Virus record (IMG/VR): IMGVR_UViG_3300036713_000524 | Span: 1-37,471 of that record | From: a virus | Taxonomy: Duplodnaviria > Caudoviricetes | DNA length: 37,471 bases | Direction: 5' to 3' (one strand) | Part shown: positions 3,362 through 24,149 of the stretch, piece after piece | Numbering within the stretch: position 1 is the first letter of the stretch | How the letters are laid out: every line of letters begins with the position of its first letter | Notes under the pieces: generated by a model | Seen by the model: only the letters and a program-made list of their open reading frames with translations | Told to the model about the DNA's origin: nothing | Databases searched by the model: none | Position numbers and translations under genes: made by a program

Positions 3362-4153
3362 TTAAAGTCTCGCTGTCGCAACGTCTACATCGACGCTGCT
3401 CAATTGCTCGCTTTGCTCGTTGGCCTTCCGCCATCCTCGCTTTAATATCCGCTGCGCCTTTTTTTCGGCTAGCCGAGGTGAATCCATAAACCAGAAAGGG
3501 ACGCCGTATCGGTCCGACCAGGACATCACGCTGCCGTCGAATTCCTGTAGCAGTGCCCGCGTCGTTCTCTTGCCTCGCTGGGTGATCGATCCCAGGCAGG
3601 TGCCATAGGTCCCTTCGATCACGATGTGACCATAGGGTATTTCGGCGAGGAATTCCATTGTCCGGATCCACCGTTCGCGTCGCTCGCCGTGGGATAGAAA
3701 AGTGCCCAACGCATCAGCCACGCTCTTCCGTTCGATGTGGACCCAGCCCTCGCAACCGGCCACGGAATAGTCGGCCCGCGTTGGTCCGAGTGTTTGCCAC
3801 TTGACCGGCTGAATGATCGGCCGTTCGTTCGCGTCAAGAAAACCCTGGAATGCCCACGGCTGCTTTTCCTGGCTGTCGATCAGGATTGTAAACGCTTCGG
3901 TGGTCTGGTTATCGACCAGGGATAGCTGTCCCCCGATCTCCGCCGTCTGGAGGTTCTTCATCCAGAATTCCACGGTTGCGTCGTCTCGCAATGTCAGCCC
4001 TCGCATTGCCAGGTAAATCCGGATTGTGTCTAGCGTCTTCGGTCCGACGCCATCAATTGCTTGGATCCATTCTGGCTTTATGTTTCGCCAATCCTCCGGT
4101 GTGTTGATTCCGAAGTGCTCACTTGCTTTTTTGATTCGATGCTGAAATGCCAT
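3362..4153 (-). CDS. ERCC4/XPF-family structure-specific nuclease with N-terminal HhH-like motif
   Basis: ILIDSQEK, ADYSV and IERKSVADAL match ERCC4 (DxRE, GDY, ERKxxxD). IDGVGPKTL is HhH-like. Confidence 0.85.
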   Translation of the reverse strand: MAFQHRIKKASEHFGINTPEDWRNIKPEWIQAIDGVGPKTLDTIRIYLAMRGLTLRDDATVEFWMKNLQTAEIGGQLSLVDNQTTEAFTILIDSQEKQPWAFQGFLDANERPIIQPVKWQTLGPTRADYSVAGCEGWVHIERKSVADALGTFLSHGERRERWIRTMEFLAEIPYGHIVIEGTYGTCLGSITQRGKRTTRALLQEFDGSVMSWSDRYGVPFWFMDSPRLAEKKAQRILKRGWRKANEQSEQLSSVDVDVATARL

Positions 4154-4419: not shown

Positions 4420-6708
4420 CTAAAAAAGGTGGTTGATTTCGTCGATGATGATTAATTCTCGCAGAAACGTTTTTCGCTTGCCGGCGACTACCTTCCGGCA
4501 CATCTCTTCTGCTGTCTTGCTGCTCCCTATCAAAAAGCATTTTTCCTTGGCTCGGCTAATCGCCGTGTAGAGCCACTCCCGGCTGCATACCATCTTCGCT
4601 CCCGGGTAGCTGTCGATCATCACGACCGCGATACGAAACTCGCTGCCCTGCGACTTGTGGACCGAAATTGCATAACCAAGATCCCAGTTTTTTCCCCCGA
4701 CCTTTTCTCCTTGCTTGGCCGGGTAAAGCGGAATAGAAACTAGCCGATGGGGCGCCGGTAATTCCACCTGCATGCTGTTCCCAACGATCGATATCACTTT
4801 TCCGATCTCGCCGTTGCTCACCCGCGTCTTGTCATACTTACTGTTCTTCAGGCAGATGACCTTGTCGTTCAAGCGGAATAGCCGTCCGGGAATCGCCGGC
4901 ATTGGATTCAATGCCACCTGTAGTCGCTGATTGAGATCCTTGCGTGAAAGCTTCGACTTCTCGTTGACGGCCACCATCACCTGGACGTCCCAAACCGGAT
5001 CGAATCCGTTCGCCTTGCATGCTTTCATTAAAAGGTCGAGCGATGCCAGCTGGCCGGCCGGCTGCCTCTCTTCGAGAATCTTAAAGTTGTCGAGTTGTCC
5101 CGGTTGAACCGACGGCCAGGGAAGGGCGTCCCGGATCGCGGCGCAAACGGCAGGGATCCGTCCTTCGTTCCGTTCAATTTTTGTTAGCTTCCCAAATCCG
5201 ACCGCCCCTGAATTGATCATGTCCCGCATCGGTGCTCCGCCGCCGACCGGTGAAAGTTGATTGACGTCGCCTACCAATAGCATATGGGCATTCGGTTTTG
5301 CGGCTGCAAAAACCGCCCCCATCAGCGGCATGTCCACCATCGACGTTTCGTCTCCGATGATGATTTGCTCTGGCCAGTGTTGGTTGTCGTTGAACGCGAA
5401 GTCCGTTTCGTCATTGCCCCAGCCGAGGTGTGAATGCCAAGTTCTCGCCTTCAAATTCACTTCGGCTTCGTGCAGCACTTCCGTTAGCCGAACCGCTGCC
5501 TTGCCGGTTGGGCATCCGGCGATGATCGATTCCGCGTAGCCGAGGCTGCACAATTCCTTGATCAATCTCGCGACAACGTATGTTTTGCCAGTGCCAGGGC
5601 TTCCGCTCAAAATGCCAAGCCGGCCGGACAACGCCTTTTCCAGTTCGCTTACTTGGTGCCCGGTGATTGTCGCATCGATCTGACAGGCTTCCGGCCATTT
5701 CGTTGCAATTGGAAGCCTGGTCGCCTGGCGATCAATCATTCCGCCGACTTTTTTTGCCAGCCTTTTTTCCGCTCTCGCGTTACTGGCAGACGCTAGCCAT
5801 TGGACGTCGCCTTCCGGATCGATCGGTCCTTCGATGCCCTTCGTCCTGGTTGCCTCGATCGATGCGTAGTGTCGCCCGCGCGAGATGCTGTTCAGCCGAA
5901 TTCCCAATTCAATCGCTTTCCTTGGTCTTGCGTCTCGCCCAGCGATCTTTTCCGGTCTGTTCATCAGGACGCTGGCTCGCTGCCAGGTGTGTTCCTTTTG
6001 TCGGCCGTTTTTTAATTCGTCCCAAATGGCTAGTGTCTGCCTTCGAAGTCTCCCGGGGTCATTGCCGAGGGTTAGCCATAGCGCGTCCGCCATTTTAAAT
6101 CCGACGCCCTTAAACTCGATCAGTTTATAGGGGTCGCGTCTGATGGTTCTCGCTGCCTGGTTGCCCCACTTTTTGATGGCTGCTCCTGCCACCGCTTTTG
6201 GGAACCCCTGGCCGTTCAGCAGGCCGGCGACCTCAATGGCTGCTGCTTCGGTCCACTTCTGCTCCCTCAGTATGCTGACGATTGTCTCTTGCTGCCCTTC
6301 GGTGATCCGGCTGTTGTATCGTCGCAGGCAGGTCGGATCCATCCGAATCGTTGCCACCGTTTCGCTGCCGTATGCCTTCCAGAGTTTCTCGACCGTCACG
6401 CTCCCCATCCCGTTGCCGTCGCCGATTTTTGTCAGGTAGGCGATCACCCCTGCTTTGCTGCTTGGCGTTGCCACGGTGAACGATGTGAATTTAAATTGCT
6501 TTTGCACCGTCTTAAATCGCGGATGCACCCACTCGCTTCGCCGGCCAAAAAAACGATACGTGCCACCCTCTTCAATGTCGCTCGGCTCCGCCACTCCGCT
6601 GACCGAAATGCATCCGTCGCTTGTCTTGACTTCTGCCGCAAACCACTCCCCTTTCCGGACCCGCACTTCTAGAAGGACGCCTTCTATCTCTTCCGTTCTC
6701 GCTGCCAT
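4420..6708 (-). CDS. recD2: RecD2-like SF1B DNA helicase
   Basis: GSPGTGKT, IIGDETSMVD, LVGDVNQL and YAISVHKSQGSEF motifs, plus N-terminal DPYKL..FKGVGFKMAD. Start placed at MAARTEE (6708) rather than 6867, which overlaps the upstream gene. Confidence 0.92.
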   Translation of the reverse strand: MAARTEEIEGVLLEVRVRKGEWFAAEVKTSDGCISVSGVAEPSDIEEGGTYRFFGRRSEWVHPRFKTVQKQFKFTSFTVATPSSKAGVIAYLTKIGDGNGMGSVTVEKLWKAYGSETVATIRMDPTCLRRYNSRITEGQQETIVSILREQKWTEAAAIEVAGLLNGQGFPKAVAGAAIKKWGNQAARTIRRDPYKLIEFKGVGFKMADALWLTLGNDPGRLRRQTLAIWDELKNGRQKEHTWQRASVLMNRPEKIAGRDARPRKAIELGIRLNSISRGRHYASIEATRTKGIEGPIDPEGDVQWLASASNARAEKRLAKKVGGMIDRQATRLPIATKWPEACQIDATITGHQVSELEKALSGRLGILSGSPGTGKTYVVARLIKELCSLGYAESIIAGCPTGKAAVRLTEVLHEAEVNLKARTWHSHLGWGNDETDFAFNDNQHWPEQIIIGDETSMVDMPLMGAVFAAAKPNAHMLLVGDVNQLSPVGGGAPMRDMINSGAVGFGKLTKIERNEGRIPAVCAAIRDALPWPSVQPGQLDNFKILEERQPAGQLASLDLLMKACKANGFDPVWDVQVMVAVNEKSKLSRKDLNQRLQVALNPMPAIPGRLFRLNDKVICLKNSKYDKTRVSNGEIGKVISIVGNSMQVELPAPHRLVSIPLYPAKQGEKVGGKNWDLGYAISVHKSQGSEFRIAVVMIDSYPGAKMVCSREWLYTAISRAKEKCFLIGSSKTAEEMCRKVVAGKRKTFLRELIIIDEINHLF

Positions 6709-6811
6709 TGATTGTCTCTTGCTGTTGTTGATTGCGCAAAAAGAAAGGCCGCAGCCGGCCAGCCTCACCACTTCCCGGCCGTTCCGGTGGCAGGTGACGC
6801 CTGGGATTCGG

Positions 6812-7447
6812 CTAGAATGACGAGGCGATATCGTCTGCTCGATTTTGTTTAGCCGGCTTTTTTCCATTGCTGGCTTTGCTGGCTGCCTTGCCTTTCTTCT
6901 TTACAAAATCAAACCATCCCGCGTCGGTGTGCCGGTTGCTTGCGTCGATCTCCTCCAACGCTTCCGCGTACTTCGGCACTTTCGCGGCTCGCGGGTCATC
7001 AACGTGATAGATGTTGCTGTAGGCAATCCGCAGAAACTTCGTTTCGACATCCCACTTGCCCGTCTCTTCGTCTTTCGCCATTTGGCGTTCAAGGTCGACG
7101 ATGATTTGCTGGTCTTCCGCGCTGTCGATGTCGACATCGATCTCTTTGCCAAGTTCGGCCGGCGTGACCAGGTTGCTTGCCAAAAGGAAAGCAGTCACCT
7201 TCCGGTTGGCTCTCGCCTGGCTGTCTTCGCTTTCATCCATACCTGGAAGGAAAACCGTCTCACTGATCGTCTTGCCCTCTTGCCCCTCCACCGTCCCGGC
7301 CAGGACCTGACCTTCAAAGGTGAAGCCATCAATCGCTCCTCCCTTCGGCCCTTCACCGTCCGCCACGTTGGTGATCAGGATGTGATAAGTCCCTGGTTCG
7401 TCCAGGAATGTTCCGCCGCTGAAATCTTCGCTTGTGTTTACTCGCAT
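6812..7447 (-). CDS. Putative phage ssDNA-binding protein (DUF669-like OB fold)
   Basis: Acidic 211 aa with N-terminal EPGTYHILI and a flexible tail ending DDIASSF. Lies between the annealing protein and the helicase. Confidence 0.65.
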   Translation of the reverse strand: MRVNTSEDFSGGTFLDEPGTYHILITNVADGEGPKGGAIDGFTFEGQVLAGTVEGQEGKTISETVFLPGMDESEDSQARANRKVTAFLLASNLVTPAELGKEIDVDIDSAEDQQIIVDLERQMAKDEETGKWDVETKFLRIAYSNIYHVDDPRAAKVPKYAEALEEIDASNRHTDAGWFDFVKKKGKAASKASNGKKPAKQNRADDIASSF

Positions 7448-7611
7448 CGTTCTCTCAATAAGGATTCTAAAGTTAATCGTTCGGGAAGGCTCGATACCAA
7501 TTCCAACGGGTATCCGAGGTGCAAAAGGCTCGCGGCTGCGACCCGCTCTTCGCCATACTTGTCGGCAAGCCGGCGCGTTAAAGGATCCAGGTCCCTCAAC
7601 GCGCTAGTTAG
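7438..7611 (-). CDS. 57-codon -1 frame extension of the RecT-like gene (or a small independent TTG-start ORF)
   Basis: Open frame LTSALRDLDPLTRRLADKYGEERVAAASLLHLGYPLELVSSLPERLTLESLLRERCE* fills the intergenic gap and overlaps the next ATG. It is entered via slippery A AAA AAC at 7617-7611. Confidence 0.65.
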   Translation of the reverse strand, partial: LTSALRDLDPLTRRLADKYGEERVAAASLLHLGYPLELVSSLPERLTLESLLRERCE

Positions 7612-7617
7612 TTTTTT
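7573..7617 (-). other. -1 ribosomal frameshift signal (slippery heptamer + stimulatory hairpin)
   Basis: A AAA AAC, 6-nt spacer TAACTA, then GCGCGUUGAGGGA-CCUGGA-UCCUUUAACGCGC (13-bp stem with 2 G:U pairs). Confidence 0.7.
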
Positions 7618-8633
7618 GCCGGTTCCAAAAACTTCGTCAGGTCGCCGGCTTCCAGCCCCGCGTGAAGTTCGGCCAGGTCGTCTGCCGGTAGTCCGTCCAG
7701 CGTCTCGATCCCGGCTTCGTCTAGATACTTGCGAACGGCCAGGGCGAGGGTTCGGCCCTCCGGGTCCGCTGCAAGTTGGGCAAGCATCAGCCGGGTTGCC
7801 CGCAGCAAATCAGCCGGATCCGGCTCCGGCTCCGGCTCTGGCTCCGGCTCCGCGATCTCCTCCGGGAGTATGGTCACGAGTTCGTCGAGAATCTTGCTCG
7901 CCCCTTCCCTGGTCAAATCGCCCATGTCCCTGGCTCCAGTCGCGGCGATTGCTCGCAGCTGCGATTCCGGTCCGATCGATAGGCGATCGTATTGGACCAT
8001 CAGCGATTTGATCTGCTCGCCTGTCGCCTTCCCTTGGCCGTTTGAAGGAACCCCGGCCGGTGGTTCGCTGTCCCGCTGCGAACCGTCCGACCGAGGCGCC
8101 GTGCTCGGTTCTGGCTTCGTTTCGATCTCGACCGTCGTGTCCGGATCGCCATCGGTGGCAAATCCGGCGAGGACCTCCGGGCAAACCATCAGGATTGCCT
8201 TGCTGGTCACTCTCGCCCTTAGCATGGCGCCGGGATTCTTTTTATAGTTTCCGTCGGCCTTGACCAGTCCCTGGCGTTCCGCGTCCTCCATCGAAAACCG
8301 AACCCTTTCCTTTACTCCCGCAAACTCGACCTCGATCGTTGCCTGGTCGCCGTTGTCGCCGTTTGCTTGCCAACGGTAGGTTCCCCCCAGTCGCCGAAAT
8401 TCGGCGAGCATATACTCCGCCCGCATCAAAAGCTTGCTGCCCTGCTTGCTGTTCATTACATGGAAACGCTTTCGCATCTCCGCCACTGGCACCCCTTCAT
8501 CGTATGCCATCAGGACGAGGGTCGCCCCCTGCTCTGGATTCTTTAATCCGAAAAGTCCGCCGATCGCTAAAATCCGCCCCAATTCGAGGGCGTCTTCTAG
8601 CTGGCTTCTAGTGAAAATCGTTCCTTTGGTCAT
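7608..8633 (-). CDS. RecT/Red-beta-like single-strand annealing protein
   Basis: FSMEDAERQGL..NYKKNPGAMLRARVTSKAILMVCPEVLAG resembles the conserved RecT/Bet core end, followed by an acidic linker and helical C-terminal domains. Adjacent to the SSB-like and helicase genes. Confidence 0.75.
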   Translation of the reverse strand: MTKGTIFTRSQLEDALELGRILAIGGLFGLKNPEQGATLVLMAYDEGVPVAEMRKRFHVMNSKQGSKLLMRAEYMLAEFRRLGGTYRWQANGDNGDQATIEVEFAGVKERVRFSMEDAERQGLVKADGNYKKNPGAMLRARVTSKAILMVCPEVLAGFATDGDPDTTVEIETKPEPSTAPRSDGSQRDSEPPAGVPSNGQGKATGEQIKSLMVQYDRLSIGPESQLRAIAATGARDMGDLTREGASKILDELVTILPEEIAEPEPEPEPEPDPADLLRATRLMLAQLAADPEGRTLALAVRKYLDEAGIETLDGLPADDLAELHAGLEAGDLTKFLEPAKN

Positions 8634-9699: not shown

Positions 9700-9729
9700 C
9701 TTTCAAAGCCTCGTTTTGAAAACAAAAAA

Positions 9730-9768
9730 ATCGGTTCGGTGGCCGGCTTCATTACCAGGGCGCCGGCT
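9730..9768. repeat. 39-bp direct repeat, copy 2
   Basis: ATCGGTTCGGTGGCCGGCTTCATTACCAGGGCGCCGGCT. Contains the stop codon of the 55-aa ORF. Confidence 0.9.
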
Positions 9769-9919
9769 GGACGTGCCCAGTGTAGTCGACCTTCAGCTTG
9801 CAGATAATTGTCTGGTCCCGGTAGGGAAGGTCGCGTCGCATGAAAACGGTTCCTCCGTCTACGTCGTAAATCCGGAATCCAATCTCAATCAAAAGGGTAA
9901 TCATCTTTTCTTGCGTCAT
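9752..9919 (-). CDS. Small hypothetical protein (55 aa, MTQEKMITLL...)
   Basis: GAGG precedes ATG 9919. Directly downstream of promoter repeat copy 1. Confidence 0.7.
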   Translation of the reverse strand: MTQEKMITLLIEIGFRIYDVDGGTVFMRRDLPYRDQTIICKLKVDYTGHVQPAPW

Positions 9920-9962
9920 CGCTTTGCCTCGTTTTCGCGGTTGTTGTTTCCTGTCTGCCTTT

Positions 9963-10009
9963 ATTATACACACCTTTCGGGATGTGGCAACGCCAAAGGT
10001 GAGCATATT
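9963..10009 (-). promoter_or_regulatory. Palindromic promoter repeat, copy 1
   Basis: TATGCTCAC-N25-GTGTGTATAAT, with TTGCCA-16-TATAAT. Confidence 0.85.
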
Positions 10010-10012
10010 TGC

Positions 10013-10055
10013 AAAAAAAAACCTTCGACCGGCGATTAGGGTCGCCGGCCGAAGG
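10013..10055 (-). terminator. Intrinsic terminator
   Basis: CCTTCGGCCGGCGA/TCGCCGGTCGAAGG 14-bp stem followed by T9 on the minus strand. Confidence 0.85.
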
Positions 10056-10256
10056 GAACGCTGCCGGGGGAGTAGCCCCGGCCACGAGGCATCCGCATTC
10101 TAGCCGGCCGGCTGTCGCGGTCCAGCCCCGCGTCCAACAAATGGACGCATTGATTTGCGTTGCGTCACTCGCGGTTGCCGGCTGCCTCCGGCTCGCTTTC
10201 CTGGTCGATCCCCAGCCCCCGGCCGGCCGGCTGAGGGTTGGTTGGCTGGCTCCGGC

Positions 10257-10418
10257 TCAGTCGTCGGTCTTTACGATCGTCTCCCGGCTTTGTACCGGGT
10301 AGCGGCTGCCGTCGCTTAGCGGAATGTACCAGCCGCTAAATCCGCGTCGAAGGGTGTCGAATACTTCGCGGCCTTCGATCTTGTCGCCTGGCTTTACGGT
10401 GTGGGCTTTGCGTTGCAT
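10257..10418 (-). CDS. Small hypothetical protein (53 aa, MQRKAHTVKPGD...)
   Basis: First ATG downstream of promoter repeat copy 2. Confidence 0.7.
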   Translation of the reverse strand: MQRKAHTVKPGDKIEGREVFDTLRRGFSGWYIPLSDGSRYPVQSRETIVKTDD

Positions 10419-10460
10419 GGTTTCTCTCGCGGGTTGGTCGGTTGTCTCTTGTCTGCCTTT

Positions 10461-10507
10461 ATTATACACACCTTTTGCCCGGTGGCAATGGCAAAGGTGA
10501 GTATATT
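10461..10507 (-). promoter_or_regulatory. Palindromic promoter repeat, copy 2
   Basis: TATACTCAC-N25-GTGTGTATAAT, with TTGCCA-16-TATAAT. Back-to-back with copy 3. Confidence 0.85.
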
Positions 10508-10547
10508 TCGAAAGTTTTCGTCGGCTTGTTTTCTTGTTTTCTTTTCA

Positions 10548-10594
10548 AATATACGCACGATTGACTTGCGTGAAGGCCGAAAGGTGTGTATAAT
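10548..10594 (+). promoter_or_regulatory. Palindromic promoter repeat, copy 3
   Basis: TATACGCAC-N25-GTGTGTATAAT, with TTGCGT-17-TATAAT. Confidence 0.85.
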
Positions 10595-10638
10595 TGGTGT
10601 AGTGAATGAAACACCCGCCAAACCAAAAAGGCACGACG

Positions 10639-10896
10639 ATGAAAAAAACGACCCCCGAGCAAAAAAAAGCTGACCAAGAACTGGCTCTTCGCTTCTCTCG
10701 CATCTCGCCCGAAAAGGCTGAGAACATCCGCCAGGCATATTACGCTGTCGCGGATCAGCTTGAGCCTCTGATGCAAATGCTGGAGGACGCTGATTGCGAC
10801 CTCGATTACGAAGCCGGCCCCTTGATCGAGGAGCACCTCAAAATCTGCGCTGCTGTCGAAGCTTTCAAAAAGTCCCGCATCGGCGCGGTTCTTTAA
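10639..10896 (+). CDS. Small hypothetical protein (85 aa, MKKTTPEQ...)
   Basis: Helical ORF downstream of copy 3 with an AAGG SD-like sequence. Confidence 0.75.
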   Translation: MKKTTPEQKKADQELALRFSRISPEKAENIRQAYYAVADQLEPLMQMLEDADCDLDYEAGPLIEEHLKICAAVEAFKKSRIGAVL

Positions 10897-10908
10897 TCCC
10901 TGTCACCC

Positions 10909-10935
10909 GCCAGCCGGCGATCGTCGCCGGCTGGC
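10909..10935. repeat. Intercistronic GCCGGCGATCGTCGCCGGC hairpin (diverged copy of the 63-bp repeat)
   Basis: GCCAGCCGGCGA-TCG-TCGCCGGCTGGC, 12-bp stem with no T tail. Confidence 0.8.
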
Positions 10936-10960
10936 TCGTTCCCTCTCTTTGGAGTTTTCA

Positions 10961-11164
10961 ATGCGTATTCTCACGATAGTCTTGAAATCTGGCGCCAAGC
11001 TTGAATTCGAAATGCCGGTGTCGTATGACCCGGCCGACTTGATGAATTTTCAGTGCCGGTGGTTCGCAACCATCGAAAGCCCATATTACCGGGTCCAGGG
11101 CTGCACGGGTCCCGTCCAGATCGACGTCCGCACCCTTGCTGTTGTCACTTGCCGAAAGGCATAG
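10961..11164 (+). CDS. Small hypothetical protein (67 aa, MRILTIVLKSG...)
   Basis: GGAG at 10951 before the ATG. Followed by a terminator. Confidence 0.75.
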   Translation: MRILTIVLKSGAKLEFEMPVSYDPADLMNFQCRWFATIESPYYRVQGCTGPVQIDVRTLAVVTCRKA

Positions 11165-11176
11165 GACGCGGCAGCC

Positions 11177-11218
11177 GGCCGGCCAGGCATTCCAGCCTGG
11201 CCGGCCTTTTCTTTTTTT
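11177..11218 (+). terminator. Intrinsic terminator
   Basis: GGCCGGCCAGGC-ATTCCA-GCCTGGCCGGCC perfect 12-bp stem followed by a T tract. Confidence 0.9.
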
Positions 11219-11225
11219 CTTTTCA

Positions 11226-11271
11226 AATATACGCATAATTGACTTGCAGCAATCCGAAAGGTGTGTATAAT
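11226..11271 (+). promoter_or_regulatory. Palindromic promoter repeat, copy 4
   Basis: TATACGCAT-N24-GTGTGTATAAT, with TTGCAG-16-TATAAT. Confidence 0.85.
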
Positions 11272-11317
11272 TGGGGTAGTGAAGCAAACAACCGTCAAAC
11301 ATCGCGAGGCAAAAACG

Positions 11318-12148
11318 ATGACCTGCCCTTCAAACATCCCCTTCGGCGTCGAACTAGAAACCACCATGCCCGTCTCGGATACAACCCCGATCGGTGGTTA
11401 TCACCGAGGGCTGCCCGTCCAGTGGCTTCCCTCCGGCTGGAAGGCTGAACGGGACGGATCCATCCGAACCATCCCGAACCGCAAGGGTTGCGAATTCGTC
11501 AGCCCCATCCTTCGCGGAACCGACGGCCTGGAACAAATCCAAACCGCTTGCGACTCGATCAAAGATCGCGGTGGAAAGGTCAACGCTTCATGCGGTGTCC
11601 ACGTCACGGTCACCTTCGATGGCGACGCGGCTGCACTTGCTCGCCTGGTCTGCCTGGTCGCAAACCATGAAAAAGCTCTTTACGCTTCGACTGGAACGAC
11701 GACCAGGGAAGAGGGCACCTACGCTAAAGGGCTGAAAAGCTACGGCAAGGATGACGCAAAAAGCCGGCTTGATCGGGATCGCTTCCACGTCTTGAATCTG
11801 ACGCACATCGCTCGCGGTCGCAACCGCGTAGAATTCCGCGTTTTTTCCGGCTCGCTGAATCCTGACAAAATCACCGCATGGGTTCAAATCTGCTTGGCAC
11901 TTGTTTCGCTCGCAACCGCGCAGCAACGATCAACGTCTTGGGATTACGAAGCAAAGGCCGGCAAGCCTGGCCCTTGGGATCGCTCAGGGGCTGGCGAGGG
12001 CGAGACGGAGTTGGCTCGCCTATTCTATCGCATCGGCTGGACCAAGGGCCACACATCGAAGACCTACGGGGTTATCGGTGAAGGTGTGAAAGCGATGAAA
12101 AAAACGCTTCGGCTGATGGGTCGCAAATACGACGCGGCTGCCGCGTAG
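11318..12148 (+). CDS. Putative amidoligase (COOH-NH2 ligase, Amidoligase_2-like)
   Basis: FGVELET, WKAERDGSI, CEFVSPIL, NASCGVHVTV, RFHVLNL and VEFRVFSGSLN motifs. GAGG before ATG 11318. Confidence 0.88.
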   Translation: MTCPSNIPFGVELETTMPVSDTTPIGGYHRGLPVQWLPSGWKAERDGSIRTIPNRKGCEFVSPILRGTDGLEQIQTACDSIKDRGGKVNASCGVHVTVTFDGDAAALARLVCLVANHEKALYASTGTTTREEGTYAKGLKSYGKDDAKSRLDRDRFHVLNLTHIARGRNRVEFRVFSGSLNPDKITAWVQICLALVSLATAQQRSTSWDYEAKAGKPGPWDRSGAGEGETELARLFYRIGWTKGHTSKTYGVIGEGVKAMKKTLRLMGRKYDAAAA

Positions 12149-12174
12149 CCGGCTGCCGGCTGCCGGCCATCGCT

Positions 12175-12207
12175 AGAACCCGGGGTTATTTTCCAGGTTC
12201 TTTTTTT
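12175..12207 (+). terminator. Intrinsic terminator
   Basis: AGAACCCGGGG...TTCCAGGTTCT imperfect stem followed by a T tract. Confidence 0.7.
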
Positions 12208-12208
12208 A

Positions 12209-12255
12209 TTTATACGCACCTTTCGCTTGCGTCCTGTCCGAAAGGTGTGTATAAT
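12209..12255 (+). promoter_or_regulatory. Palindromic promoter repeat, copy 5
   Basis: TTATACGCACCTTTCG...CGAAAGGTGTGTATAAT, with TTGCGT-17-TATAAT. Confidence 0.9.
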
Positions 12256-12301
12256 TGGTGTAGTGAATGAAACAAAACCCTTTCCGCTCCGAGGCTTTCC
12301 G

Positions 12302-12616
12302 ATGAATTCCATCCGTCAATTCAACGACAACGATTTTGCTGCTTTTGCTGGCGTCAGTTCTTTCGCTGACGATACTCGCCCCCTGATCTGGTTTGATACA
12401 ACCGGCGACATTGTTGTCGTTGGTTCCAAAATCGGCATCTCGATTTTGTTTTCGCCCGGTGAATCGGAAGATTTCATCGAAGCCCACCTGACGATGAATC
12501 TGCCGTCTCAGCCGATCGCTCGCGCAACGATGGCCGGTGTGATCGCAAGCATCGATTTTGTTGATTTTCACAAAATGTTGGACGGATTGTCAAAGCTTGG
12601 CTTCAAGGCAATCTGA
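12302..12616 (+). CDS. Hypothetical protein (104 aa, MNSIRQFND...)
   Basis: GAGG before the ATG. Sits between copies 5 and 6. Confidence 0.75.
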   Translation: MNSIRQFNDNDFAAFAGVSSFADDTRPLIWFDTTGDIVVVGSKIGISILFSPGESEDFIEAHLTMNLPSQPIARATMAGVIASIDFVDFHKMLDGLSKLGFKAI

Positions 12617-12627
12617 AAAACTTTTCA

Positions 12628-12674
12628 ATTATACGCACCTTTCGCTTGCAAGCCATCCGAAAGGTGTGTATAAT
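12628..12674 (+). promoter_or_regulatory. Palindromic promoter repeat, copy 6
   Basis: ATTATACGCACCTTTCG-N13-CGAAAGGTGTGTATAAT, with TTGCAA-17-TATAAT. 12617-12676 is identical to 12978-13037. Confidence 0.9.
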
Positions 12675-12733
12675 ACGAGCATGGCGAACGGGGTTCGCCG
12701 CCTTCCCTTCCCTCTTGCTTTGGAGTCTTCGCC

Positions 12734-12976
12734 ATGCGTCCTTCGTCCATCACCGTTTCTGGTTCGCTCGCTGACCTCTCGACCGTTGCTGACGTTCGAG
12801 GGCTGTCCCAACGCCACTTCGGTGGGATCCAGTGGGAATCTGCCGCAAAGCGGATCGCGCGTCGTGCCGGTGGCTTCCGTGTCTTGTTGGCCGACGGCCG
12901 ACTTCGAATCTTCACCTTGCTCGCTGACGGCCGGGTTGCTGTCTCGACCTGGAATGCAACCGACTGGTCATTCTAG
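12734..12976 (+). CDS. Small hypothetical protein (80 aa)
   Basis: GGAG before the ATG. Sits between copies 6 and 7. Confidence 0.75.
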   Translation: MRPSSITVSGSLADLSTVADVRGLSQRHFGGIQWESAAKRIARRAGGFRVLLADGRLRIFTLLADGRVAVSTWNATDWSF

Positions 12977-12988
12977 GAAAACTTTTCA

Positions 12989-13035
12989 ATTATACGCACC
13001 TTTCGCTTGCAAGCCATCCGAAAGGTGTGTATAAT
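12989..13035 (+). promoter_or_regulatory. Palindromic promoter repeat, copy 7
   Basis: Core identical to copy 6. Confidence 0.9.
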
Positions 13036-13079
13036 ACAAACATCGAAAGCAACCCCCGCCAATCACGAGGCACCTCGAA

Positions 13080-13625
13080 ATGTCCACTCTTTACACCGTC
13101 ACCGTCGAAAGCTCCGGCCGAACCCGCCACTCATTCGGTCGCCTTGAAGAAACCTTCGACGATGCTCTTCGTTTCGCTCGCCGGCTCTGGAACGGCTGCA
13201 GCCCTGCTGAGCGAGGCAAGTGGGATTCCATCTCGGTTGCGTCCCCCGAGAGCACCACGGTCGTCTGGACCCGCCCCTCGCTGCTCGACATCCCGGCCGG
13301 TCGATACGCTTTCGAAGGCAAGCGATACGTTGTCACCGTCCCGAAGGCCGGCTCCAAATGGTTCGGATTCGTCTTCGTCGCAACGGGTAGCGAATACCAC
13401 GACCGCACAACCATCGCTGTCGTCACCCCACGCGGGACCTTCGGTGTGAAAACGTCGGCCAGGGGAGAGGCTGTCACCAACGCCATCGCGGCTGACCCCA
13501 TCGGCCGCATGGCGGAATTCGGCCAAATCACCGGCCGGTGTGGTCGATGCGGTCGGGTCCTTGAGGACGCGGATTCAATCGCTGCCGGTCTTGGCCCGAT
13601 CTGCCAGCAAAAAATGGCCGGCTGA
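13080..13625 (+). CDS. Protein with C-terminal DUF6011-like zinc-binding motif
   Basis: GRCGRCGRVLEDADSIAAGLGPIC matches CxxCGRxLxDxxSxxxGxGPxC. GAGG upstream. Confidence 0.8.
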   Translation: MSTLYTVTVESSGRTRHSFGRLEETFDDALRFARRLWNGCSPAERGKWDSISVASPESTTVVWTRPSLLDIPAGRYAFEGKRYVVTVPKAGSKWFGFVFVATGSEYHDRTTIAVVTPRGTFGVKTSARGEAVTNAIAADPIGRMAEFGQITGRCGRCGRVLEDADSIAAGLGPICQQKMAG

Positions 13626-13634
13626 TCCCGGCCG

Positions 13635-13663
13635 GGTCCGGAATCAATCCGGACCTTTTTTTT
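13635..13663 (+). terminator. Intrinsic terminator
   Basis: GGTCCGGA-ATCAA-TCCGGACC followed by T8. Confidence 0.88.
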
Positions 13664-13710
13664 ATTATGCCCACCTTTCGCTTGCAACGCATCCGAAAGG
13701 TGTGTATAAT
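13664..13710 (+). promoter_or_regulatory. Palindromic promoter repeat, copy 8
   Basis: TATGCCCAC-N25-GTGTGTATAAT, with TTGCAA-17-TATAAT. Confidence 0.9.
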
Positions 13711-13752
13711 TGGTGTAGTGAATGAAACACCCGCCAACCACGAGCCACAAAA

Positions 13753-13998
13753 ATGTCCGATTCACTTGTTGTCCACGCGAACCGCATGGATTCCGCCATC
13801 CTGGTCGTCATCAACGAAACGGCGAAAGCTTGGGAAGTTCGCAACGTCGATTGTGGACGGTCTTGCTGGCTGCCGAAGAGCGGACTTCGCCTTTACAAGC
13901 CAGGCGTCGAATCCTACGAGGGCGAGTATGTTCTCGCTCCCTGGCTTCGGTCGAAGCTTTCCGACCAGCAAGAAAAGGTCTTGAACCTTTTGATGTGA
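13753..13998 (+). CDS. Small hypothetical protein (81 aa, ETAKAW...WLPKS motif)
   Basis: ORF fills the space between copies 8 and 9. Confidence 0.78.
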   Translation: MSDSLVVHANRMDSAILVVINETAKAWEVRNVDCGRSCWLPKSGLRLYKPGVESYEGEYVLAPWLRSKLSDQQEKVLNLLM

Positions 13999-14009
13999 AA
14001 ATCTTTTCA

Positions 14010-14057
14010 ATTATACGCACCTTTCCCCTTGCAAGGACCCCGAAAGGTGTGTATAAT
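14010..14057 (+). promoter_or_regulatory. Palindromic promoter repeat, copy 9
   Basis: TATACGCAC-N26-GTGTGTATAAT, with TTGCAA-17-TATAAT. Confidence 0.9.
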
Positions 14058-14097
14058 TGGTGTAGTGAATGAAACACCCGCCAACCTGGAACCAGCC

Positions 14098-14244
14098 ATG
14101 AAAACCCGCACCGTCTGCCTGACCCCCATCCGCCCCGAAGTTGTCAGCTATGTCGAGTGGCTGAAAAAAGAAGGCATCGTTGTCGTCTCCGTCGTATGGC
14201 CCACGCTGCCCGGTCGCGACGTCCGCGTCACCTTCGAGGTTTGA
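14098..14244 (+). CDS. Small hypothetical protein (48 aa, MKTRTVCL...)
   Basis: ATG placed about 40 bp after copy 9, as in the other cassettes. Confidence 0.65.
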   Translation: MKTRTVCLTPIRPEVVSYVEWLKKEGIVVVSVVWPTLPGRDVRVTFEV

Positions 14245-14306
14245 ACCGCTCCCTTTCCCCACGGCTGGCACGATCGCCAGCCGGCCCCTTCCCGAGGAAC
14301 CCTGCC

Positions 14307-14486
14307 ATGAAAAAGCTTGACGCCACTCACCGGCTCTTCGCCAAGGCTGACGCAATCAAAATTGCTGCCGAAATGAAGGCCGGCGATCCCGATTGGGATT
14401 ACCGTCCGGTTCATTGCCCGAAAGGGACCGGCTTCAGTTTCATCGAAATTTTCGACGAGGACGGTCAATTCGTCGCCCGCGTTTAA
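14307..14486 (+). CDS. Small hypothetical protein (59 aa, MKKLDATHRL...)
   Basis: Preceded by the RBS block CCCCTTCCCGAGGAACCCTGC (14285-14305). Confidence 0.72.
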   Translation: MKKLDATHRLFAKADAIKIAAEMKAGDPDWDYRPVHCPKGTGFSFIEIFDEDGQFVARV

Positions 14487-14517
14487 TCCTGCTTCCCCTT
14501 CCCGAGGAACCCTGCAA

Positions 14518-14790
14518 ATGCCCGCTTACAATCCCGATCTCCAGATCACCCGCCCGGACAAAACCGGAGCCAGGACCGTCCATCGCGCTGCTCGCGGCCC
14601 TTCGGCCGATCCGGCCTTTACTGGCGACCCCGGCGACCCCGGCTGCAACGGCCGGTGTGTTGTCGCGAGAATCAGCCGGTATCTCGGTGGCCGTGAAGGA
14701 ATCAGCCACGTCGTGACCGGCTGCAATATTCACGCTCGGTTCTATTCCGAAAAGGCCGCGATCGATTGGTGTCGATCGACCTTCGGCTAA
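14518..14790 (+). CDS. Small hypothetical protein (90 aa)
   Basis: Preceded by the same 21-bp RBS block (14495-14515). Confidence 0.72.
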   Translation: MPAYNPDLQITRPDKTGARTVHRAARGPSADPAFTGDPGDPGCNGRCVVARISRYLGGREGISHVVTGCNIHARFYSEKAAIDWCRSTFG

Positions 14791-14800
14791 AATCTTTTCA

Positions 14801-14847
14801 ATTATGCTCACCTTTCCCTTGCGAGGACCCCGAAAGGTGTGTATAAT
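14801..14847 (+). promoter_or_regulatory. Palindromic promoter repeat, copy 10
   Basis: TATGCTCAC-N25-GTGTGTATAAT, with TTGCGA-17-TATAAT. Confidence 0.9.
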
Positions 14848-14890
14848 ACAAACATCGAAAGCAACCCCCGCCAAACCAAAAGGCACCGCA

Positions 14891-15115
14891 ATGTCCAATC
14901 AAAAAGCCCTCACCGCTTACCTTCGGACCGCGTCTGACGTCCGTGCTTTGCTCGCTCGCCTCGAATCAGGGTTGGATGCTTACCAGGACCGTGTTTCTCC
15001 TGACGAGGTCAACTATGGCCACGTGGGCGATATGGGATACCTGATGGCTTCCCTGCAGGACCTGTCCGACCGCGTCAACGAGGAGAACGAATACGCCTCT
15101 GATGAGGCAGCCTAG
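14891..15115 (+). CDS. Small helical phage protein (74 aa, PDEVNYGHVGD motif)
   Basis: Downstream of copy 10. The motif recalls a phage hypothetical family (PDE[IV]xWGHVG), from memory only. Confidence 0.75.
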   Translation: MSNQKALTAYLRTASDVRALLARLESGLDAYQDRVSPDEVNYGHVGDMGYLMASLQDLSDRVNEENEYASDEAA

Positions 15116-15174
15116 TCGCTGCCCTGCTTCCCAACGGCCGGCGATCGTCGCCGGCCGGCTTGCTCCCTCTTGCT
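15112..15174. repeat. 63-bp exact direct repeat with hairpin, copy 1
   Basis: CTAGTCGCTGCCCTGCTTCCCAACGGCCGGCGATCGTCGCCGGCCGGCTTGCTCCCTCTTGCT, identical to 15400-15462. Confidence 0.95.
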
Positions 15175-15187
15175 CCACTCCTGTCCC

Positions 15188-15403
15188 ATGAATTACAGCA
15201 AACCCTATTTTCAAGCCACCCTTCCGTTTGTCTCGCGGAAAGAAGCAATCAGTCAGCGAGAAAAACGCGATGCCATCCGCGCTCGCAACGCCAGGTTGAT
15301 GTCTCGCCGCTACCCCACTGAATTGCAATGCCAAAGGGCCATCGATCGCTCGCCCGATTGGGCTGAGTTGTTGGCCACCGAGACGATGGATCTCTGCTTC
15401 TAG
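15188..15403 (+). CDS. Small hypothetical protein (71 aa, MNYSKPYF...)
   Basis: ORF exactly bracketed by the two 63-bp repeats. Confidence 0.65.
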   Translation: MNYSKPYFQATLPFVSRKEAISQREKRDAIRARNARLMSRRYPTELQCQRAIDRSPDWAELLATETMDLCF

Positions 15404-15462
15404 TCGCTGCCCTGCTTCCCAACGGCCGGCGATCGTCGCCGGCCGGCTTGCTCCCTCTTGCT
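15400..15462. repeat. 63-bp exact direct repeat with hairpin, copy 2
   Basis: Identical to 15112-15174. Includes the TAG stop of the upstream gene. Confidence 0.95.
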
Positions 15463-15475
15463 GGTCCTGTCTCCA

Positions 15476-15784
15476 ATGTCGCAAATGTCGACTCGACTTT
15501 TTGGCCGTCGTTTAATTCTCGATTGCTTGAATTCCATTTTCGTTTCGCTTGCTCACCTTCGGGTTCAAATGGACGCCCGGGCAGTTCCCGAGGAGCAAAA
15601 GAAAATTTCGCGTGAGCACTTCCGGCAGGTCGTTGGCCGTGCTGGAAAACTCGCCGATCTTGCAATGCTTCCCGGCGATCACCTGTCCCCCCGCGTATTT
15701 TACGATGCGTCCGCGCTGCTTGGCGCCGTGAACCGGACGCGGGAACGGCTGGCCAGTGAGGAGGCTTCCCGCAAAAAGGGCTAA
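15476..15784 (+). CDS. Hypothetical protein (~102 aa, MSQMSTRL...)
   Basis: ORF between the 63-bp repeat and promoter copy 11. Confidence 0.65.
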   Translation: MSQMSTRLFGRRLILDCLNSIFVSLAHLRVQMDARAVPEEQKKISREHFRQVVGRAGKLADLAMLPGDHLSPRVFYDASALLGAVNRTRERLASEEASRKKG

Positions 15785-15830
15785 ATATGCCCACGGTTGA
15801 CTTCCCTTGGCCGGATTCGGTGTGTATAAT
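15784..15830 (+). promoter_or_regulatory. Degenerate promoter repeat, copy 11
   Basis: TATGCCCAC-N25-GTGTGTATAAT is retained. The inner CCTTTCG/CGAAAGG arms are lost and the -35 is weak (TTCCCT). Confidence 0.75.
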
Positions 15831-15898
15831 AGGGGCATCGGCAATAGTCGCCGCCCCACTTGAACCTTCCCAAACCTTACCAACCCCCTGCAGATCCG

Positions 15899-16096
15899 AT
15901 GTCCAAGCAATCGCGACAAAATATCACCCAACCCGACGCCTGGCTGGAAGCCTGGAAAGCCCAGGCCAAAAAAGAAAAAAAGAACCTTTCCCAGTGGATC
16001 GGCGAAAAGTGCAACGCCGGCCTTCCCAAAAGAACGGCCGGCCGGCTCGTCGAGCGACGTGGACCCGGACGCGTAAAGACCGAATCCGCGGATTAA
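15899..16096 (+). CDS. Putative ribbon-helix-helix DNA-binding protein (65 aa)
   Basis: RQNITQP (strand), DAWLEAWKAQAKKE (helix), NLSQWIGEKCN (helix), then a basic tail RRGPGR. Confidence 0.65.
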   Translation: MSKQSRQNITQPDAWLEAWKAQAKKEKKNLSQWIGEKCNAGLPKRTAGRLVERRGPGRVKTESAD

Positions 16097-16169
16097 GCTT
16101 GCCCACGGCTGCTCCGCTGCTGTCTAAGGTGGAGCGATTCCATCTCACTCCTATTGTTGGACCGATCTG

Positions 16170-16361
16170 ATGATCACCACACCCGCGCTGCTGCTGCTCC
16201 TGCTTCTTGCTTTCACGTCGGTCGCCTCGCTGGCCGGCGCGGTTTTCAATTTTCGCCGCGATGCAAGTGCAGTTTTCTGGTTCTCCGTTCTGTCGCTGAT
16301 GGCCGGCGTGATCCCGCTCGCCTTGTTCGTTGTCGGTGCGATCAGTCTTTTGTTCCGTTAA
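16170..16361 (+). CDS. Small membrane protein (two hydrophobic segments)
   Basis: 63 aa, almost entirely hydrophobic, with a central RRD loop. Confidence 0.7.
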   Translation: MITTPALLLLLLLAFTSVASLAGAVFNFRRDASAVFWFSVLSLMAGVIPLALFVVGAISLLFR

Positions 16362-23529: not shown

Positions 23530-23850
23530 TTATTCCCTGGCAATTCTCATGGATTCGTAGTTAAGCCGATGGGTCAATTTCGTCAACCAGGAGGGCTGAT
23601 CCAAAACGCCCCCCGCCACTAACAAGTTTCCGTCGTTGCACATCGACGCAATCTGTATTTCGTTACCAAGTTCACCCGCGTATTGCATTGGGCAACCTGG
23701 CAATTGAAAACTTCCGGTCCCCCCGCATGCGTTGCATCCCTCCTCTTCGCATGTCGGGCAGGCCACGCTCACGAGCCCTCTCCCTGGCTTGCAATCTTTG
23801 ACGCACCCCTGGCAAAGTTTCCCGGCGCGTATCAGCGAGGCCACCCTTAC
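23530..23850 (-). CDS. Tail assembly chaperone -1 frameshift extension (gpT-like), Cys-rich
   Basis: The -1 frame after A AAA AAG reads KKVRVASLIRAGKLCQGC...CPTC..GCNACGGTG..GGVLDQP and ends just before the tape measure start. Confidence 0.75.
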   Translation of the reverse strand, partial: VRVASLIRAGKLCQGCVKDCKPGRGLVSVACPTCEEEGCNACGGTGSFQLPGCPMQYAGELGNEIQIASMCNDGNLLVAGGVLDQPSWLTKLTHRLNYESMRIARE

Positions 23851-24149
23851 TTTTTTAGCTCGTCCTCCGATAGCTGATTGATTTCGTTCACTTTTTTCAA
23901 GATCTCTTGCGCGAGGTCGACGTTGATCGTATCGATCCACGAATCGAATTCCTCCTCCGTCATCACTGTGACTTCGCGAAGGTTGGTAATCAGCATTTCG
24001 AAAATTTTTGCCGCGTCTCGATCTGCCCTCACTTCTGCCTCAAGTTTTGCAAGCTTGATCTCTTGCCGAATAGATAGGCAGGTCACTTCCAATTCGTGAC
24101 CCTTGCCATATTTGATTGTCTGTCTCTCGCCAGGCTCGATGGTTTTCAT
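23847..24149 (-). CDS. Tail assembly chaperone (gpG-like)
   Basis: 100-aa acidic ORF between tail tube and tape measure, ending CTA AAA AAG TAA. Confidence 0.82.
   Translation of the reverse strand: MKTIEPGERQTIKYGKGHELEVTCLSIRQEIKLAKLEAEVRADRDAAKIFEMLITNLREVTVMTEEEFDSWIDTINVDLAQEILKKVNEINQLSEDELKK

Follow-up and report, generated by a model that had tools for sequence, protein, structure and literature searches.

The window analysed here, a stretch of 37,471 nucleotides (positions 1 to 37,471 of IMG/VR record IMGVR_UViG_3300036713_000524), is a tailed-phage contig from sediment metagenomes with terminase, portal, head-protease and primase genes. On its minus strand, the stop codon of a gene for a RecT-like single-strand annealing protein (annealase) is separated by 160 nt from the ATG of the next gene, and the question raised by this locus is whether translation always ends at that stop or whether some ribosomes pass into the −1 frame and add the peptide encoded in the gap. 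Conserved frameshifts in tailed phages have been described mostly for particle-assembly genes. The present site is very probably a case of a known mechanism, −1 frameshifting, in a new setting, a phage recombination module, where it would append a domain of no known family. A site in such a module would mean that the annotated annealases of this group lack a domain that part of the molecules carry.

Site architecture

The upstream gene matches PHROG 561 ('RecT-like ssDNA annealing protein'; E 1.6e-14). The window protein gives no match to the Pfam RecT profile, and its relatives carry PF03837 (below the curated cut-off in one profile search). It consists of an annealase domain, a linker and two helical C-terminal repeats and terminates in ...EPAKN, the 3' end of the gene reading CCG GCA AAA AAC TAA on the minus strand. 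Direct reading and a ViennaRNA fold agree in every coordinate with the heptamer, stop, spacer and 13-bp stem claimed in the first-pass annotation (Table 1). The stem is present in the minimum free-energy and centroid structures alike (86 nt folded; −32.6 kcal/mol, z −3.21, with one of 200 shuffled sequences equally good), and the site ranks fourth by downstream folding energy among the 129 any-frame heptamers of the minus strand. Translation likewise bears out an open −1 frame of 57 codons that fills the gap and whose TAA overlaps the start of the next gene (ATG, 7447); joined to the 341 residues of the annealase it would give a long form of 398 residues.

Table 1. Features of the annealase locus and its module, numbered from the first nucleotide of the window
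Feature	Position	Strand	Basis
RecT-like single-strand annealing protein, 341 aa (predicted short isoform)	7608..8633	−	PHROG 561 match and alignment
Candidate slippery heptamer A_AAA_AAC, in register, last two sense codons	7617-7611	−	Direct reading
Spacer of 6 nt containing the 0-frame stop UAA (7610-7608)	7610-7605	−	Direct reading
Hairpin, 13 bp with 6-nt loop, predicted frameshift stimulator; arms 7604-7592 / 7585-7573	7573..7604	−	Folding
TTG, sole candidate independent start ahead of the domain; within the stem, without SD site	7597..7599	−	
−1-frame ORF, 57 sense codons (7611-7441) and TAA (7440-7438); conserved predicted three-helix domain	7438..7611	−	
Gly-Tyr-Pro, window version of the family motif GYPPTW	7507..7515	−	
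SSB-like protein (DUF669/PHROG 378 related), 211 aa; family accompanies the domain	6812..7447	−	
RecD2-like helicase, next gene of the module	4420..6867	−	
ERCC4-type nuclease, same module	3362..4153	−	PHROG 3490, E 1.2e-5

The −1-frame domain

Conservation of the 57 residues, for which the first-pass annotation had suggested a search, is evident among related loci. From 160 loci fetched by the annealase, 14 were picked by eye, nine of which had a window-like peptide in the −1 frame. When each sequence was left out in turn, a profile HMM run against 14,815 six-frame ORFs recovered nine of ten at E ≤ 5.4e-4 (2.7e-6 for the window), with L003 reaching only 0.32. Four further loci added via the annealase and 16 via the domain alone brought the first ten to a set of 30, counted after re-found contigs (L166–168, L252, L254 and ten further rows) had been dropped and with the near-identical pairs L248/L250 and L273/L283 counted apart; 24 of 43 DNA-pattern matches stayed under the 25-bit mark and were discounted as chance matches. 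The annealase cores of domain loci are only 25–54% identical to that of the window, and the annealase tree has long branches and does not order the gains and losses of the domain.

The family shares the motif L..l...fG...Vw..Gl..LGYPPTW, and an AlphaFold model of the domain alone comprises three helices (pLDDT 82, pTM 0.58). Third codon positions of the −1 frame change most in the pairs L001/L081 (17/12/32 at first, second and third positions) and L248/L250 (0/1/12), the latter with ten synonymous and two non-synonymous codon differences; by these substitution patterns, the −1 frame is under coding constraint. No match to the domain was found in Pfam, PHROGs or PDB sequences, in 50,697 GenBank phage records, or by Foldseek at E ≤ 0.001; fold searches gave nothing above noise, and the ESM Atlas no usable match (best score 0.77). 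In a 401-genome phylum sample only the source genome matched, and a single-protein scan of viral contigs returned nothing, alignments being required. Alignment and model thus mark the −1-frame stretch as a conserved domain, with three predicted helices, that belongs to no known family. The possibility that the helical repeat of the annealase recurs in it as a third copy found no support in an hhalign comparison with the annealase alignment (probability 0.3%). An in-frame fusion, which the first-pass annotation had suggested seeking in related phages, was absent from the approximately 160 fetched proteins, from the 30 loci and, in a weak search, from longer proteins.

Frame relationship and slippery heptamers

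Relative to the upstream gene, the domain lies in the −1 frame at 26 of the 30 loci, in the +1 frame at four and in frame at none. Conservation of the heptamer, another check proposed earlier, extends to 22 of the 26 −1-frame loci, each with one strict in-register X_XXY_YYZ in the overlap. Nine kinds are present (A_AAA_AAC six times, G_GGA_AAC four, C_CCU_UUC and C_CCU_UUU three each, A_AAA_AAG twice and four others once each), 16 of the 22 lying within one codon of the stop and the rest between 3 and 18 codons ahead of it. Of the 19 loci that came from the domain search alone, and so were not chosen for the signal, 12 have the heptamer. The background is 16 heptamers per 21,100 control codons, none of which opens an extension, and in a control set of 131 non-redundant annealase ends that lack the domain, a heptamer of this kind falls within the last three codons just once. 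Distant annealase homologues often end in KN, KKD, PF or GN even though their tails do not align. A dipeptide that a heptamer could encode stands at the C-terminus, or one residue short of it, in 28 of the 40 closest homologues (13% expected) and in 31 of the 109 at ranks 41–149 (12% expected), the expected rates being derived from the homologues' own last 60 residues.

At L247, L273 and L283 the heptamer lies within a conserved His-Asp-Pro-Phe stretch 9–18 codons before the stop, so that the short and long forms would differ in their tails. At L253 (2490-2632) a Sak4-like gene ends TCG AAA AGT TAG and the domain, in the +1 frame, has neither its first helix nor a good start; a +1/−2 shift, decay or an assembly error are possible. 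In L131 a hairpin and a −1 frame of 54 codons are present, with neither heptamer nor domain match.

The 57-codon frame could instead be a separate small gene, translated by coupling from the TTG at 7599 or from a near-cognate codon, with the A-run incidental. Eight of the 30 loci lack a strict heptamer, and six of these (L084, L182, L267, L269, L271 and L286) have a plausible start of their own; they include all four −1-frame loci without a heptamer (L084, L267, L269 and L286). L286 ends in the relaxed motif G_GUU_UUU, of the T7 gene 10 type (passages of PMC5009743). Gene callers also list 13 stand-alone domain members of 41–113 aa, and Shine–Dalgarno (SD)-like elements precede some heptamers (median −5.4 versus −3.0 kcal/mol, p 0.013; strong at L248, L250 and L249). 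Several database members, however, begin inside the conserved part, as a gene caller's guess would. In the window, the TTG is buried in the stem with no SD site (duplex +1.7 kcal/mol) and the codon is not conserved among relatives; the first-pass annotation had named initiation there as an observation that would count against frameshifting. At 13 of the 22 heptamer loci there is no ATG, GTG or TTG in the 20–65 codons ahead of the conserved Gly, the codon over the annealase stop varies between loci (CUA, CUG, GUA, UUA), and a separate gene leaves nine different in-register heptamers unexplained.

Heptamer and own start are in fact nearly mutually exclusive: 20 loci have only the heptamer, six only the start, two neither (L253 and L259) and two both (L130 and L171, which count against strict exclusion), with a Fisher p of 0.001 at an author-chosen SD cut-off of −4 kcal/mol and with related loci counted apart. 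The p-values of this analysis overstate independence, since the first ten loci were selected by visual inspection, the loci are related and the SD cut-off was chosen by the authors. Some relatives are thus predicted to produce this domain unfused, as a small protein; at the six heptamer-less loci with a start of their own it looks like a separate gene, so the domain need not be fused. For the window itself, a separate gene is improbable.

A second alternative, slippage of RNA polymerase on the A-run, or an assembly error or a recent mutation in a gene that was formerly fused, would fit the homopolymer runs of six A's in the window and seven in L081, but many sites are not homopolymers (G_GGA_AAC, C_CCU_UUC, C_CCA_AAG). 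That all 22 heptamers are in codon register, and that the frame break is −1 at 26 of the 30 loci, with no in-frame case, also stand against it, as do two contigs (perhaps the window's own source) that span 7300-7807 without a differing letter or gap; this alternative is very unlikely.

Programmed −1 ribosomal frameshifting, yielding a long isoform of about 398 residues beside the 341-residue annealase, is therefore the reading in which considerable confidence can be placed. The two isoforms postulated in the first-pass annotation are supported by the signal, the open frame, its conservation and the start-less loci.

Stimulatory elements

The window's stem follows the heptamer after 6 nt, inside the 5–9 nt range expected for a stimulatory structure in bacterial −1 frameshifting. 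Downstream folding is stronger at domain loci than at control annealase ends (median z −2.7 for 15 loci, the window among them at −3.35, versus −0.14 for 131 controls; p 7e-6). At about a quarter of the loci the hairpin is weak or missing (z 0.25 at L003, 0.52 at L105, 1.15 at L099, −0.3 at L273/L283 and −1.1 at L250), and stem sequences differ between locus groups. In the sole alignable pair, L001/L081, 15 of 15 base pairs are kept, one of them changed on both sides, although two sequences make thin material. Of the proposal that the hairpin is conserved, enrichment of structure as a group tendency stands and conservation of a particular sequence does not. That the hairpin serves as a terminator or processing site, such as one for plus-strand transcription, with the open frame secondary, is also a very remote prospect: the plus strand does have TTTTTT 7 nt after the stem, but the G:U pairs, correctly assigned to the mRNA strand in the earlier annotation, become mismatches there and weaken the fold (−16.0 versus −21.1 on the minus strand), a terminator scan lists the hairpin on neither strand, Rfam has no match for it, and such a role does not account for conservation at the protein level.

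Gene context and distribution

The window's own SSB-like protein has no PHROG 378 or DUF669 match. Among its homologues 7 of 19 match PHROG 378 (SSB) and 2 of 19 DUF669, and the 'SSB' label of the gene is thus an indirect, putative one, assigned via homologues. Its model matches PrgE, an OB-fold ssDNA binder (E 4.5e-4, TM 0.31–0.46). Members of the SSB-like family occur at nine of nine newly found loci, as detected with a profile built without those loci (E 5e-8 to 1e-44). L106 carries an annealase gene followed directly by the SSB-like gene (1172-1199), without domain or heptamer, and is the sister of L099 in the tree. At other annealase loci without the domain (L164, L169, L179–L245), inspection by eye mostly shows, as the next gene, a long exonuclease-like ORF with ATGA or GTGA coupling, the ordinary annealase–exonuclease layout.

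The gene upstream of the domain is not always RecT-like; the domain also stands behind Sak4-like and Erf-like genes, ahead of an SSB-like gene. The upstream genes of L253 and L267 are Sak4-like (AAA_24, E 7e-22; PHROG 124, E 8e-11) and that of L286 is Erf-like (E 1.5e-21). L249 and L251 encode P-loop proteins that end in G_GGA_AAC and have weak AAA_24 matches (E 1e-4 and 2e-3; below the curated cut-off), so that the examples of a heptamer in a non-RecT gene are these two, both weakly classified. In L249 (582-2468) the C-terminal part of the P-loop NTPase matches the helical repeats of RecT-like proteins (E 2e-11), which suggests that a catalytic domain has been swapped in front of a shared C-terminal part. 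Two domain loci lie within genomes titled Planctomyces sp. and Pirellulaceae, and the hosts of this annealase group are probably Planctomycetota. A broader proposal, for which the balance falls just short of even, is that a portable frameshift-and-tail cassette between recombinase and SSB genes outlasts replacement of the recombinase, with evolution switching between a tail fused by −1 frameshifting and a free protein; the domain would then act as a new mediator of recombination, with recoding setting its proportion relative to the recombinase oligomer.

Elsewhere in the window, a second candidate site lies in the tail region (23530-24149, minus strand), between tail-tube-like and tape-measure-like genes, where a tail-chaperone-like ORF ends CTA AAA AAG TAA (23856-23847; heptamer A_AAA_AAG, 23856-23850). 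GGAGG stands about 8 nt upstream, there is no significant 3' hairpin (z +1.3), and the −1 frame is open to 23530 and encodes a Cys-rich CxxC domain; from its sequence, this site looks like a G/GT frameshift. A putative amidoligase gene (PF12224, E 8e-20) occupies 11261-12148 on the plus strand. The region at about 9700-16200 has a non-coding appearance with recurring similar segments, its ORF translations repeating 'VCIIG' and 'YTNYTHLS', and A-runs with GC-rich inverted repeats at about 11217, 13661 and 15980 are possibly repeated promoter or terminator units.

Proposed mechanism and function

In the proposed mechanism, part of the ribosomes would slip back by one base at A_AAA_AAC near the end of the annealase gene, tRNA-Lys and tRNA-Asn re-pairing one base back in what would be a tandem slippage, while the hairpin would hold the ribosome at the heptamer before the UAA is reached. 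The long form would carry the predicted three-helix tail and the short form would stop at the UAA. Annealases of the RecT type work as oligomers, so the oligomers would be mostly plain, with an occasional tailed subunit. The longer product is probably a minor one, at a few percent, since A_AAA_AAC is a low-efficiency motif in E. coli; the same motif is frequent in IS1 and IS3 elements (both as stated in passages of PMC4066793).

The tail may be a protein-binding adaptor that ties the recombinase to a partner from its module, most plausibly the phage's own SSB, a tentative assignment that is somewhat less probable than not. This guess draws on the position, size and fold class of the domain, on its free-standing form in relatives and on analogies with the C-terminal domain of Red-beta and with Sak4 and its SSB. 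Annealase activity depends on partner binding by the C-terminus (PMC6393309, PMC5928155), and Sak4 needs its SSB (PMC5928155, in the part cited).

Gene callers overlook the domain or place its start wrongly. Recombineering runs on annealases, and anyone mining them would have to reckon with a hidden isoform, if it is real. The nine natural slippery motifs in one context also offer a test of frameshift rules outside E. coli.

Comparison with known systems

Full-text searches, which covered main texts and few subscription journals, turned up no description of frameshifting in the gene of a phage annealase or recombinase. The first 300,000 of the 449,034 characters of PMC5009743 contain no 'RecT', 'recombinase' or 'Sak', and the main text of PMC3711429 contains no 'RecT' or 'annealing'. 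The closest recombinase modules are those of HK620 (PMC5928155) and 'Healer' (PMC13687109), in both of which, according to the passages cited, a Sak4 recombinase gene adjoins a gene for a DUF669-like SSB that stimulates it; 'frameshift' does not occur in the two main texts, nor an intervening small domain in those passages.

Like the predicted −1-frame domain, the C-terminal domain of lambda Red-beta is small, has three helices and closes an annealase; it binds Exo and SSB (PMC6393309). It differs in being encoded in frame and has no sequence similarity to the −1-frame domain, which no sequence or profile match links to the lambda Orf three-helix bundle either. Structural comparison with the Red-beta domain (8tfu) gives Z 3.3 and an rmsd of 2.7 over 49 aligned residues at rank 29, where the best Z is 4.4, a result within noise and tied with unrelated bundles.

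Among frameshift systems, that of E. coli dnaX shortens the protein. The window site has only an unclear candidate for an SD-like stimulator 9–14 nt upstream of the heptamer (−3.3 kcal/mol), unlike the sites of dnaX and of the IS1 and IS3 elements. In the IS1 and IS3 families the shift joins the transposase parts OrfA and OrfB (parts of PMC4066793 and PMC5009743). The nearest parallel is lambda gpG/gpGT, in which, according to the cited portion of PMC5009743, a shift close to a phage gene's 3' end makes a low-level long form with an added domain, the arrangement is kept despite low sequence similarity, and the added domain of gpGT links to a partner protein. The lambda case concerns a structural assembly gene, whereas the present one concerns a DNA recombination gene and an unrelated domain, which exists in free-ORF form as well. 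A few tailed annealase subunits among plain ones would parallel gpGT among gpG.
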